From: Eledone cirrhosa
Lineage: Eukaryota
DNA: 64,000 nt
Assembly (NCBI GenBank): GCA_964016885.1
Contig: OZ024743.1
Span: forward strand, 66,774,001 to 66,838,000
Direction of reading: 5' to 3'
Both the position numbers and the translations under genes were made by a program. Below are positions 44,045 to 48,134 of the stretch, piece after piece. Below the pieces are notes generated by a model that saw only the letters and a list, made by a program, of their open reading frames with translations, was not told the origin of the DNA and did not search any database. The number at the start of each line of letters is the position of its first letter. Position 1 is the stretch's first letter.

Positions 44045-44217
44045 AGTTTATCCCGGGTTCAATCGCGGATACCCACAGTAGTTAAGGTACTCAATACATA
44101 GCAGAGTATAAATATTTAATATAGAAAGGCTTCTTCAGGACTTCATTCGGTAGAAATCATCAGGCTTCCTGGTGATTTCTACCGAATGAAACAGTTCTAG
44201 TCCTGTAGAAGCCTTTC
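44045..44217. mobile_element. Hammerhead mini-element copy 1 (inverted duplication; plus-strand core CUGGUGA)
   Basis: ~80-nt arm AGTTTATCCCGGGTTCAATCG..GTATAAATATTTAAT plus palindrome 44124-44217. Confidence 0.8.
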
Positions 44218-44908
44218 AATATATATATATATATATATATATATATATATATATATATATATATATATATATAAGGGATAACAAAATATCGTTATAGGTA
44301 ATCAAGTTAGAGGTTATGAATACTTATTATTATGGATAGTTTTAGGGTACGGCGTTGTTTGACTCAACAAGAGGTTTACGTAGATGGCGAGTTTATGATT
44401 TCACTTGTATTCCTATGTAAGTTTATCTTGGAGTAATAAAATTGAAAAAGCGAAGAATAACATGGTGAACTGTACAAAATAGTGGAATTTATTTACAGTC
44501 TAACAATTGTTTCTCTGATTAAGTTGTCTAAAAATTGCTGAACACTAGAAGCAGTGCCGCTCAATTTTAAATACGATGTTAACTCAATCAGAACAGTCTC
44601 TGGAAAAAGATGAGTATTGACGTACGTCAATACTCATCTTTTTCAATTTACCTGAGGGGTCTAAACCCCACTATCAGGCTAAAATTTCTTTAGTCAAAAA
44701 TACGATGAAAGCTTCTATTTCTAATTTCAAACTTGCTCACTGTTTCAAAACAAACATATATATATATATATATATATATATATATATATATATATATATA
44801 TATATATATATATATATATATATATATATATATATATATATATATATATATATATATATATATATTTATTCAAAATATTAACAAAATAGATATTCTTGTG
44901 ATCAAGTA

Positions 44909-44975
44909 TATTTTATTATACATATTTCAGAGGTACTGAGTTAACTTCAACGCTACATCCTCATCAGATAAAATA
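44909..44975 (-). ncRNA. Type I hammerhead motif (intact core)
   Basis: UAUUUUAU-CUGAUGA-GGA..UCU-GAAA-UAUGUA-UA-AUAAAAUA; 3' half and tail repeated inverted at ~45040-45102. Confidence 0.75.
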
Positions 44976-45640
44976 AGATGATGCATGACATACCCTGACA
45001 TAGTAGATGGTTAAGATTCAGTCCTGGTAAGATTCAGTCCGAAATATGTATAATAAAATATACTTGATCACATGAATATCTATTTTGTTAATATTTTGAA
45101 TTAATATTAATAACTCCGGAAAACCATACTTGTTGAGTGCTTCCAATCTATTGTAAAAATCATTCTTTGATTTATTCATTGAACCTTGTTTAACCTTTAA
45201 ATATATATATATATATATATATATATATATATATATATATATATATATATATATATATATATATATATATATATATATATATATATATATATATATATAT
45301 ATATATATTTCTAGTTGTAGTAGGTGAAAATCCAAAATTTTAGAACAACTCAAGTATGTGAACGAGTTATGACATGCCTAATCAATTTACACTACAATAT
45401 CCAAATAACACGTAGGTAATATGACACACGTTTCAATGACTGATATATATATATATATATATATATGTATTTATATAAGTATGTGTGCATGGGTGTGTGT
45501 GTGTGTGTGGTGTGTGTGTGCGCGCGTGTGTGTGTTTTATGTGTGTGTGTTTGTTTGTGTGTGTACGTGTGTGTGCTGCGTGTATGTGTAAGCTCGGTGT
45601 ATAATAAAAGTTTAGATGTGTCTTTGCACATATACGCTCG

Positions 45641-45716
45641 AATTTCTGACGAGATATCGAAAAATAGTCGGGTACTGTCACCTGCGCTGATCGATATCGA
45701 AACAATTGTAATATGC
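45641..45716 (+). ncRNA. Hammerhead motif, intact core, stem I disrupted
   Basis: CUGACGA-GAUAUCGA..UCGAUAUC-GAAA-CAAUUG-UA: perfect 8-bp stem II. Confidence 0.7.
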
Positions 45717-45774
45717 AAATACAGTTTCTACATATGCTGCAACAGTAACTTCAACGCTTTTAAATATATATATA

Positions 45775-46045
45775 AGTTTATCCCGGGTTCAATCGGAAGT
45801 AACCACAGTAAGTAAGGTGCTCAATACAAAGCAGAGTATAAATATTTAATGTATATATATATAATGTATATATATATATATATATATATATATATATATA
45901 TATATATATATATATATACATATTGTAGAAAGGCTTCTACAGGACTAGAACTGTTTCATTCCGGAGAAATCATCAGGGTTTCCTGATGATTTCTCCGGAA
46001 TGAAACAGTTCTAGTACTGTAGAAGCCTTTCTACAATATGTATAT
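45775..46045. mobile_element. Hammerhead mini-element copy 2; intact plus-strand hammerhead 45976-46028 within a near-perfect palindrome
   Basis: GGGUUUC-CUGAUGA-uUUC uccg GAAu-GAAA-CAG uucuagua CUG-UA-GAAGCCU; same ~75-nt arm at 45775-45850. Confidence 0.85.
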
Positions 46046-46089
46046 ATATATATATATATATATAATAATTGTCTAGGATACTAATTTGT

Positions 46090-46165
46090 ACCCACTGATG
46101 AGCAAGAATTGGTATTTCTATTCACAATTAATTAGTATTGAGAAACAGCACCAAGCTGTCTGTGT
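46090..46165 (+). ncRNA. Hammerhead motif, slightly degenerate stems
   Basis: ACCCA-CUGAUGA-GCAA..UUGA-GAAA-CAGC accaa GCUG-UC-UGUGU. Confidence 0.65.
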
Positions 46166-46723
46166 GATTGGTAGTAACCACAATTCCGGTTTGTATTTAT
46201 TTTTTGATTTTTTTCTTAAATTGAGACAGGTAAACCCTATTGTCTACAGTTAGTATTCTTTTCACTTTAGCGAATCTGGTCCCTTGCCATTTGAACATAT
46301 ATATGTATATATCTGTGTTAGTTTTTCTTTTATATCAATTATAATATACGGCTCGGAAAAATCTCTTTCTTAGAGCTATTTTATTGTAAGAGACTATTTT
46401 GAGTTCCTAACTCAATATCTACCTTTGATATATATATATATATATATATATATATATATATATATATATATATATATATATACACATACATGTGTGTATG
46501 TGTGTATATATATCGCAATTTTACAAACGAATCTTCCTTTATGGTTTTTCTGGTAAAGCAGAGCATGCCAATAATCTGAGATTATCCTAGATCTATGAAG
46601 CAATTTAAAGCAAAGAACATGTTTTCATGTTTTCTTATCAGATCTCCTCAGCTATATATATATATATATATATATATATATATATATATATATATATATA
46701 TATATATATACATATACATTACA

Positions 46724-46830
46724 AGGGGTCTGACGAGCCGCGGTTTACAGAGTCAGGTCAGATCGAGACAGATCGAACCATGAGCTGGTCAGTGGCGAAA
46801 CGCGCGTCAACAACCAATAAACGTAATGAA
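46724..46830 (+). ncRNA. Hammerhead motif with long stem II insert
   Basis: CUGACGA-GCCGC..GUGGC-GAAA-CGCGCG-UC; related sequence in reverse at 43888-43975. Confidence 0.7.
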
Positions 46831-46889
46831 GGAGGTACCAATCATACTTGTTATCTTATTTAACTATTTATATATATGAAAAAATTCAG

Positions 46890-47060
46890 AACCCCGACGG
46901 CTGAGCTCCGGCCGTTTCGACAGCTAGGTCTGAACTCAGTTCAGACCTAGCCGTCGAAACGGCCGTAGCTAATCGTCGTGGTCCTGACTCTTTTCCTATT
47001 ACCCACTCTACTACCCTAAATATCGAGTAGTCTGGTGCGTTATGGTCTCCCTGGTTCCTT
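46890..47060 (+). mobile_element. Short element with inverted hammerhead 3' half
   Basis: Palindrome GGCCGTTTCGAC.GCTAGGTCTGAAC tca GTTCAGACCTAGC.GTCGAAACGGCC plus tail shared with 40285-40375. Confidence 0.65.
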
Positions 47061-47801
47061 AGCACACTTCCTACGTTATATATATATATATATATATATA
47101 TATATATATATATATATATATATATATATATATATATATATATATATAGATATATATATATATTAACACACATCATGGCTGAGGGAATAAAGTTAATGTA
47201 AAGAATGCATGAAGAGGCTTATTTTGGGTAACATCGGTAGAGCCTCGGACAACATGTTTAGTGACATAGAGTTACGGCCCTTTATGTTCTTAGTTCAAAT
47301 CCCGCCGAAGTTAACTTTGCCTTTCATCCTTACCAGGTCGATAAAATAAAGTACCAGTAACACTTTGGGGTCAATTTAATCGACTTTCCGCTGTACATAT
47401 GTGTTTATATACACCCATACTTTTATACACTTGTTTCAGCAGTAATTACCCTCATTCTGGCTTCAGAAGTAATGTATGCAATTTAAACAACTATTATTAC
47501 AGTTATCTGCATTGTGGCAACAATATTTACACTTTTCACATATCACATGCGCACACACACACACACACACACACACACATATATATATATATATATATAT
47601 ATATATATATATATATATATATATATATATATATACACGATTCATGTTAGGCTGTATACCAATAAGGGATCGTCTGCCACGGCTATAACACCGAAATGTT
47701 AGGTTTCCCCGAATCCAATAGGTCCTCTATTTTCTATTTTCTATTTTCTATTCTCTGTATTCGACGTAATCCTGTTGTCGTATGGAACTAATTCTGCAAT
47801 T

Positions 47802-47877
47802 AACACCTGATGAAATCGTCTAATTCCTGCATCAAGATAGGATGATAAAACTGGGCCGTCGAAATATGTATAGTGCT
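47802..47877 (+). ncRNA. Hammerhead motif, degenerate stem II
   Basis: CAC-CUGAUGA-..GGCCGUC-GAAA-UAUGUA-UA-GUG. Confidence 0.5.
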
Positions 47878-47992
47878 TTCGAGGAATTAAAATTCTAAAG
47901 TAAATTTCCAATCTGGCTTTCTATTGTTGTTTATAACAAGTATACACACACACACACACACACACACACACACACACATGTATATATATATA

Positions 47993-48134
47993 AGTTTATC
48001 CCGGGTTCAATCGGAGGTAACCACAGTAAGTAAGATACTCTATACAAAGCAGGGTATAAATATTTAATATAGAAACGCTTCTACAGGACTAGAACTGTTT
48101 CATTCGGTAGAAATCATCAGGAAGCAGCTGCTTC
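47993..48134 (-). mobile_element. Hammerhead mini-element copy 3; intact hammerhead 48076-48126
   Basis: UGCUUC-CUGAUGA-uUUC uacc GAAu-GAAA-CAG uucuaguc CUG-UA-GAAGCG followed by the same ~80-nt arm. Confidence 0.85.

Follow-up and report, generated by a model that had tools for sequence, protein, structure and literature searches.

A 64,000-nucleotide (nt) stretch of the Eledone cirrhosa genome (G000:C4:66,774,001-66,838,000; hereafter the window) holds three related copies of a short sequence at 44045-44217, 45775-46045 and 47993-48134, which read on the minus strand and carry a hammerhead ribozyme motif or its remains, and which raise the question of what such short pieces derive from and what sets their ends. 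A first-pass annotation of the window had taken them for a minimal non-autonomous retroelement, or a solo pseudo-long terminal repeat (pseudo-LTR), with a boundary made by self-cleavage. We find instead that the three copies correspond to the part of a Hydra-clade Penelope-like element (PLE), hammerhead and tail, that lies between its TATA box and its ATG, and that ribozyme cleavage does not set the ends of the copies. How the fragments arose is a matter of inference, and we think it probable that the reverse transcriptase (RT) of the element copied only the capped front end of its own uncut RNA into (TA)n targets.

The genome searched was the 3.0-Gb assembly, and positions are counted from the predicted cut, with H17 as -1 (48082 in copy 3); C3 then falls at -39, and stem I, of 6 bp, has its 5' strand at -45 to -40. 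Copy 3 as a query gave 2,554 candidates, and the best 40, when scored, contained 62 matches on many contigs that were 92-100% identical and had the same end point. An exact hammerhead pattern of 32 places, in which both arms of one inverted pair count separately, has 19,079 matches in the genome and none in the control, with a forward-strand excess of 2,265 that is probably the C28 array described below; the stem I variant of the window type has 8,412. An exact ORF-start pattern (ORF, open reading frame) has 94 matches, which gives a ratio of roughly 200:1 between two different patterns. These numbers support the earlier idea of solo, ORF-less pieces retro-copied from a Penelope-type element, and a local segmental duplication, the possibility that the annotation had set against its own reading, is rejected, as the flanks of the three copies differ and copies are dispersed over the genome.

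The link to an autonomous element came from queries that reach beyond the tail. With a query one step longer, 59 copies extend past the common end into leader sequence, and among 30 such loci that were fetched several continue into MLTKLDLDISLKNIPIP, with an ATG at about +137; six tail-extended loci (L055, L062, L070, L078, L088 and L089) continue towards or into the ATG. The stretch equivalent to the tail of copy 3 is thus the 5' leader in ORF-bearing copies, and the stand-alone mini-element of the annotation does not hold, since other copies continue into the start codon of an RT/GIY-YIG ORF. A search with the leader stretch beyond the tail revealed a young subfamily, and in a survey of 18 ORF-bearing loci with long flanks (6 young, 12 non-young) a frame of 713 amino acids (aa) is open in all six young loci. 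One of them, L126 (frame at 2282-4420), holds a complete unit of 4.8 kb that extends from one hammerhead to the next, in the order hammerhead, tail, ORF, TA/TG microsatellite of ~2 kb, promoter region and hammerhead, and stops at the short end (defined below) in (TA)18. Copy 3 is 88% identical to the leader of L126 and 90-92% identical to the leaders of broken ORF copies with its own stem I (L092 and L133 among them). We also considered and rejected a non-autonomous unit of 430 nt that would have a 5' end to itself: about two thirds of 30 upstream-selected copies start after a TA run (by eye), and this start is internal to whole elements, because in L126 and L132 a long TA/TG microsatellite immediately precedes it. 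The annotation had further allowed that other copies might be fragments of an annotated autonomous Penelope family, which comes close to what was found, in that the copies are linked to an ORF and the clade is annotated, though the family itself is not in the sources compared.

The single 713-aa ORF has an RT region followed by a C-terminal GIY-YIG domain, with YRDD at 347 and IVY..YIG at 585-604. Pfam returned GIY-YIG, though only at E 0.13, and no RT family match to this protein, which has 1,408 relatives of ~700 aa, the best of them 45% identical. The Hydra clade, as defined in the available part of PMC8557442, is marked by RW[KR], DKT, a CxCx5C linker, and CxxC and CxH flanking a conserved E and N. 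The protein has RWR at 38 (RWK with K changed to R), DKT at 116 (DKG changed), CNCLNKEAC at 566 for the linker, CDLC at 666 for CxxC and CMH at 694 for CxH, and a CCHH motif in the endonuclease is not obvious among the listed C and H positions, taken without alignment to reference PLE endonucleases. A hammerhead is present in the pseudo-LTR of the element, and 64 of 101 arm ends are followed by TA-like 12-mers, a count in which the aligner over-extends the short end into TA. At 4.8 kb the element exceeds the tendency of the clade to stay below 3 kb, because of its ~2-kb microsatellite 3' untranslated region (UTR); ORF and leader together make 2.3 kb. By its predicted protein motifs the element is assigned to the Hydra clade, of which it is a new family. 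The available text of an Octopus vulgaris repeat annotation (PMC13282606) counts Penelope-like families and mentions neither Hydra nor ribozymes, and therefore such libraries may contain the family without a name.

The hammerhead itself was recognized from its core. Copy 3 has the CUGAnGA/GAAA/UH core with three stems, and a strict type I descriptor scanned over the window matched it and one other, implausible place, against none in 30 shuffles of the window. No hammerhead was among the 150 matches listed of 163 from Rfam at E<=1 for the window, and the monomer folds no better than shuffles do (z 0.0), so it is the core motif and covariation that support the call. Among 63 fuzzy matches with the TATA spacing retained, some of them spurious, one stem I pair is C-G in 31 and A-T in 16 and a second is A-T in 25 and G-C in 18, so the changes are compensatory between subfamilies. 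Loop II, which the annotation had seen to vary between copies, is the most variable part of these matches. The U·U it had noticed at the base of stem II is equally real, being present in 47 of the 63 and kept as T..T in 97 of the first 100 listed genome matches, though not atypical as had been said: it is usual for the Hydra clade, as many hammerheads listed in PMC8557442 File S2 show ctgatgaT...Tgaa, and is also reported for axolotl HHR_Amex2 (PMC7229834). The motif is likely a genuine type I ribozyme, to judge from its sequence. The CUAG palindrome of loop III is predicted to let two copies pair (dimer -25.0 versus 2 x -7.5 kcal/mol), a pairing mode proposed for PLE hammerheads (PMC4209133), and this modelled fold therefore makes cleavage plausible.

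The ends of copies nonetheless ignore the cut. In two sets of loci chosen without the cut site, namely tail-selected loci (28 of 30 aligned) and upstream-selected loci (30 of 30), 0 of 28 starts and 0 of 30 ends lie within 3 nt of it, the nearest across the test being at +5. Copies span the cut, and the boundary by self-cleavage that the annotation proposed falls with this result. The layout of the ends is better seen in a second sample, which comprised 64 loci out of the first ~70 listed matches to the window-type stem I variant; after removal of 8 duplicates, 101 arms in 56 loci were mapped to a natural copy. The query motif of this sample spans the cut and forces focal arms to reach -24, a bias with which the absence of ends at the cut (0 of 101 arms) has to be read. 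Head-to-head pairs occur at 38 of the 56 loci, and 35 of these join a long and a short arm, 3 join two short arms and none joins two long ones. Long arms end 3' at +75 to +95 (about +90) and short arms at +5 to +33 (about +20), and at the other side the start lies 31-50 nt upstream of the cut in 79 of 101 arms and beyond -50 in 8. The commonest pair junction is GAAGC-CC-TGATG, which fits a complementary DNA (cDNA) ending in CC that annealed to the GG of its partner, and copy 2 of the window is of the same type. Several junctions, including that of copy 3, fall in GAAGCTTC or AGCT palindromes. Long copies with 250-350 nt upstream of the hammerhead number 2,005 candidates. There are also short head-to-tail dimers (L061, L064, L067, L074, L076, L079 and L084), in which the leader at about +120 is joined to the first bases of stem I, an arrangement that suggests a template jump from the RNA 5' end.

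The clustering of starts near stem I coincides with a putative promoter. In 9 of 11 matches, drawn from three subfamilies, the distance from the TATA box, TATAAATA, to C3 is 36 nt, and stem I thus begins 30 nt downstream of the box. All 60 genome matches in which a window-type arm runs through stem I straight into (TA)n were tallied by hand, and the base at -46 is C in 39, T in 10, G in 8 and A in 3. These counts hold whatever the base at -45, and the template has G or A at the place of the extra base; where the last templated base is C, the next is again C in 27 of 35, where the template predicts G and a snap-back of stem I predicts T or A. At control junctions 1-5 nt further in, of which there are 265, the first 100 include 3 with C; the background is 3.9%. 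L133, which carries an ORF start, begins (TA)n-G-GGCTTCC exactly at the stem I start point, as expected if full mRNAs begin at stem I. An extra base through cap copying is reported for L1 and for avian myeloblastosis virus RT (PMC4038843, with reference to Gilbert 2005 and Volloch 1995), and the position of the extra C makes it likely a copy of the mRNA cap. A spliced template, with a CAG acceptor adjoining stem I as in D. virilis Penelope, was rejected, because the 60 clean junctions enter (TA)n directly, without a common upstream exon. Neither cap copying nor a long-plus-short pairing rule for PLEs was found in the literature searched, most subscription papers (such as Schostak 2008 and Evgen'ev and Arkhipova 2005) lying outside it.

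Taken together, the preferred account would run as follows. RNA polymerase II transcription would begin at the first base of stem I (-45), which would make the hammerhead the first 51 nt of the mRNA. The 713-aa protein would nick both strands of a (TA)n target, and two cDNAs would be primed at internal sites near +20 and +90; on the 5' leader these would run off the cap after ~65 and ~135 nt, giving arms of 60-140 nt, with the cap copied as an extra C at the cDNA end, and would then be joined end to end (head to head) through short homologies. The same sites, if primed in the downstream repeat of a read-through RNA, would yield the rare longer copies. Cleavage, if it occurs, would remove the 45-nt capped piece and so decap the mRNA, withdrawing the RNA from the template pool, and inserted copies must therefore derive from uncut RNA. 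We lean, by no more than a little, towards the broader form of this proposal, in which the main product of the PLE is a head-to-head pair of one long and one short strong-stop-like cDNA, primed on the leader and run off at the cap, and the ribozyme is a decapping switch.

The comparison is with the minus-strand strong-stop DNA of LTR elements, a short cDNA that is primed near the capped RNA 5' end and runs off at the cap. The proposed PLE cDNAs would differ in being target-primed at a DNA nick without a transfer RNA primer, and in being inserted as such, whereas LTR strong-stop DNA is transferred to the 3' end. The nearest experimental parallel is Poseidon PAc of Anolis carolinensis (Frangieh et al. 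2024; PMC11167929), which, in the part of that paper available, likewise has a hammerhead near the ORF start and AT-rich targets, and in vitro has two internal RT start sites that bound its tail, nicks and extends both strands, uses an uncleaved template and does not need cleavage; the window PLE is likened to it from DNA ends. PAc belongs to another clade, its start sites lie inside the ORF rather than in the 5' leader, and its tail measures 30-40 nt versus ~70 nt here; the available text does not deal with pairs of a long and a short arm or with copying of the cap. The nearest known elements are Hydra-clade PLEs such as Hydra-1_Obim of Octopus bimaculoides (Craig et al. 2021; available text of PMC8557442), which share the single ORF, GIY-YIG, clade motifs, (TA)n and type I hammerhead. 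The N terminus of the window PLE is visibly homologous to that of Hydra-1_Obim (by eye), though the hammerheads differ and the two are different families. Loop III has 8 nt with its CUAG palindrome in the window PLE, versus 1-3 nt in the Hydra hammerheads listed there, and its unit measures 4.8 kb because of the ~2-kb microsatellite 3' UTR. For Hydra, the available text reports neither a start site nor statistics of ends.

Several points weigh against the account just given. The transcript start and the cap are deduced from DNA junctions alone, and the extra C could be a plain terminal-transferase addition at an uncapped end. Where TA runs border on C or G, the base is C in 83% anyway, so that the C:G ratio is uninformative (p=0.6) and the signal lies in its fixed place only. 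That signal is weak among the fetched loci (10 of 21 clean junctions, p=0.02), the arm sample was picked with a cut-spanning motif and still contains ~8 apparent duplicates, and in the young subfamily the 42 C in the first 100 of 197 junctions are confounded by stem I snap-back, because there the 3' strand of stem I is followed by CAT. Many arms fail to reach -45 by a few nt (265 matches), and copy 3 extends 2-5 nt past it with no extra base. The ORF is intact in 0 of the 12 non-young loci, where the longest frame is 158 aa, and none is intact for the subfamily of the window. Priming on the leader of a full mRNA is, moreover, indistinguishable from priming on short RNAs from solo promoters.

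The strongest alternative, which we rate as unlikely, is that the copies are ordinary 5'-truncated, inverted 3' pseudo-LTR copies of read-through RNA, their pile-up at stem I reflecting an enzyme stall or palindromic microhomology (AGCT, CC/GG). This is the standard account of PLE fragments in the available text of PMC8557442 and PMC4209133; the 2,005 candidates with long upstream sequence must stem from read-through RNAs, and the palindromic junctions, that of copy 3 among them, suit it too. It leaves unexplained, however, the extra C at a fixed place and its match to TATA+30, as well as the start of ORF-bearing L133 at the same base with an extra G, and just 8 of 101 arms pass -50. Less likely still is a true non-autonomous family resembling short interspersed elements, in which solo pseudo-LTRs keep the TATA box and a short capped RNA is copied in trans by the PLE protein. 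The ~430-nt copies do keep TATA box, hammerhead and tail, the motif outnumbers ORF starts by the ratio given above, the non-young loci examined, among them those of the window subfamily, have no intact ORF, and the short head-to-tail dimers fit as well; but no sequence is private to the short copies, the leader variants of each subfamily also precede ORFs, and the 59 copies that run past the long end enter leader sequence that solo copies do not have. Such a family would share the cap step with our preferred account and differ in the source RNA alone. A minimal retroelement whose end is made by self-cleavage can claim the intact core, the compensatory stem I changes and the predicted loop III dimer, but it is contradicted at the DNA level by the starts and ends of both cut-site sets and by the arms of the biased sample, and is very improbable.

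The three copies of the window, whose parts are listed in Table 1, can be read in these terms. All three align to the common tail end ..GATTGAACCCGGGATAAACT, as the annotation had it, and all lie where it placed them, though the hammerhead it attributed to each is complete on the minus strand only in copy 3, and the minus-strand architecture it described leaves out the inverted second arms of copies 1 and 2, which conform to the long-plus-short rule. In copy 3 the predicted cut falls between 48082 and 48081, stem I has 5 bp under strict pairing, and the start is a 14-nt palindrome, GAAGCAGCTGCTTC, likely the remnant of an inverted arm. The sense arm of copy 2 has its stem I 5' strand replaced by the fold-back junction GAAAC-CC-TGATG. 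Its arms form an 83-nt inverted repeat, 99% complementary, and in the plus arm (core at 45983) a full hammerhead can be made out by eye if one U-G wobble is allowed in stem I, though it would be locked within the 83-bp hairpin. The CAATATG + (TA)n insert is mirrored in the flank of the other arm, likely through strand-switch copying after insertion. Copy 2 was also considered as a miniature inverted-repeat transposable element or a hairpin RNA, and rejected as such, being a long-plus-short inverted pair. In copy 1 a 9-nt deletion across GAAA/stem III and a change of U16.1 leave the sense-arm hammerhead predicted to be dead, and the core of the inverted arm is CTGGTGA (A6 changed).

Table 1. 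Parts of the three hammerhead copies, in window coordinates
Feature	Position	Strand	Basis or remark
Copy 3, intact type I hammerhead and tail to long 3' end, then (TA)n	47993..48134	-	descriptor scan, alignment
Copy 3, stem I 5' strand	48126-48121	-	core C3 at 48120, H17 at 48082
Copy 3, tail of ~70 nt between short 3' end (CTATATTAAA, ~+20) and long 3' end (~+90)	47993..48062	-	
Copy 2, sense arm with core, stems II and III and cut site	45921..45977	-	alignment
Copy 2, inverted short-ended arm	45977..46045	+	alignment
Copy 2, CAATATG + (TA)n insert of ~70 nt, interrupting the minus-arm tail	45854..45920	.	
Copy 2, tail to long 3' end, then (TA)n	45775..45853	-	alignment
Copy 1, long-ended sense arm	44045..44164	-	alignment
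Copy 1, inverted short-ended arm, up to first base of stem I	44163..44217	+	(TA)n flanks

A second outcome of PLE insertion was met elsewhere in the genome. Sequence contigs from four runs of unrecorded kind, aligned on L126, contain a joint going back 77 nt, and such junctions number 1,710 in the genome and lie on a single strand. They lead to an array at about C28:30,496,800 to 30,873,700 (~377 kb; L181-L188 and L199-L203), in which the young (sister) subfamily is repeated as units of 77-78 nt that consist of the hammerhead only. It was covered at both ends (stretches of 30 kb and 22 kb) and by seven 2-kb samples at 50-kb steps; units fill all samples, which puts the total at ~4,800 if the remainder is alike. 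The array sets in right at an inverted, long-ended arm in (TA)n, at an ordinary insertion of which the short arm was amplified. It has higher-order repeats, and other satellites follow. All core bases are kept in 416 of 566 sampled units. Among 259 distinct units the rate of non-major bases is 0.037 (CUGAUGA), 0.024 (GAAA) and 0.044 (UH) in the core, and 0.020 in loop II, 0.050 in loop III and 0.041 in the 3' flank; selection on the ribozyme is thus not seen, as the core mutates about as often as its flanks, which points to a neutral expansion at the DNA level. A seven-unit piece of the same array, without TA flanks, lies at C1:350,200,287-350,200,755 (L206). Non-LTR retrozymes (PMC7229834; bioRxiv 10.64898/2026.07.22.740005) are likewise ORF-less type I hammerhead repeats from PLE pseudo-LTRs, with monomers of 150-450 bp (PMC7229834), according to the parts of these sources available. 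They are head-to-tail tandems, whereas the window copies are single or head-to-head and dispersed, and in this genome that trait is confined to the C28 array and short tandems elsewhere. The preprint proposes the birth of satellites from PLE insertion, with 300 units in the largest case of its available text.

The window has other hammerhead-like pieces, which are by-eye readings; a relaxed hammerhead scan from 40 to 50 kb of the window gave no matches. At 42199-42960 (+) is the remnant of another Hydra-type element, with a GIY-YIG C terminus 35% identical to the L126 protein, followed at ~42864-42900 by a hammerhead-like motif whose core is altered to CTGAAAA and whose stem II again has T..T at its base. 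A fold-back of another family at 46875-47080, flanked by TA runs, has a hammerhead-like 3' half (GAAAC-GGC..GCC-GTC, with a palindromic loop), and a long-plus-short arrangement of that family is visible by eye in L007 and L022. Further 3' halves with a long stem II occur at 46720-46860 (+) and 43880-44045 (-) (GAAACGCGCGTC, GAAACGCGCATC), the latter piece nested directly behind the tail of copy 1 with a 17-bp inverted repeat, and a CTGAGGA..GAAA motif right after a TA run at 46600-46655 (-) is possibly a degenerate copy of yet another family. Elsewhere there are a single 5S ribosomal RNA match at 2726-2844 (+; 110 bits), a long minisatellite of 14-bp period and >500 copies at ~10500-19000, broken ORF pieces of long interspersed element type (endonuclease, RT, zf-RVT) at 27689-31914 (-), 34693-36842 and 20371-24261 (-), and an open frame at 53818-54147 (+) ending LPGWVITWFILTAAICTWDASFIMLRPLSFPEGRLSHVWYPCK, which gives the impression of an exon of a membrane protein gene. 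A PDB sequence search gave nothing useful.

The three copies are in themselves ordinary debris, as the PLE class, the hammerhead, the inversions, the tail and the TA targeting are already in print. What is added is the pattern of their ends, namely thousands of short insertions, a one-long-one-short rule and a candidate cap mark where the TATA box places the start, together with young intact 713-aa copies; neither the end statistics nor the hammerhead array was found in the literature searched. The 78-nt array is a hammerhead satellite born of a PLE insertion and caught in place. The origin of inverted and tailed PLE structures and the role of the hammerhead are stated as open questions in the available text of PMC8557442 and PMC11167929, and an earlier account of PLE inversions, in the part available, put them down to antisense self-priming while allowing for a sense template (PMC3846280). 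If the proposed copying from the capped front end is true, the inversions and the one-sided tail of PLEs would be explained from a sense, capped and uncleaved template, without antisense self-priming.

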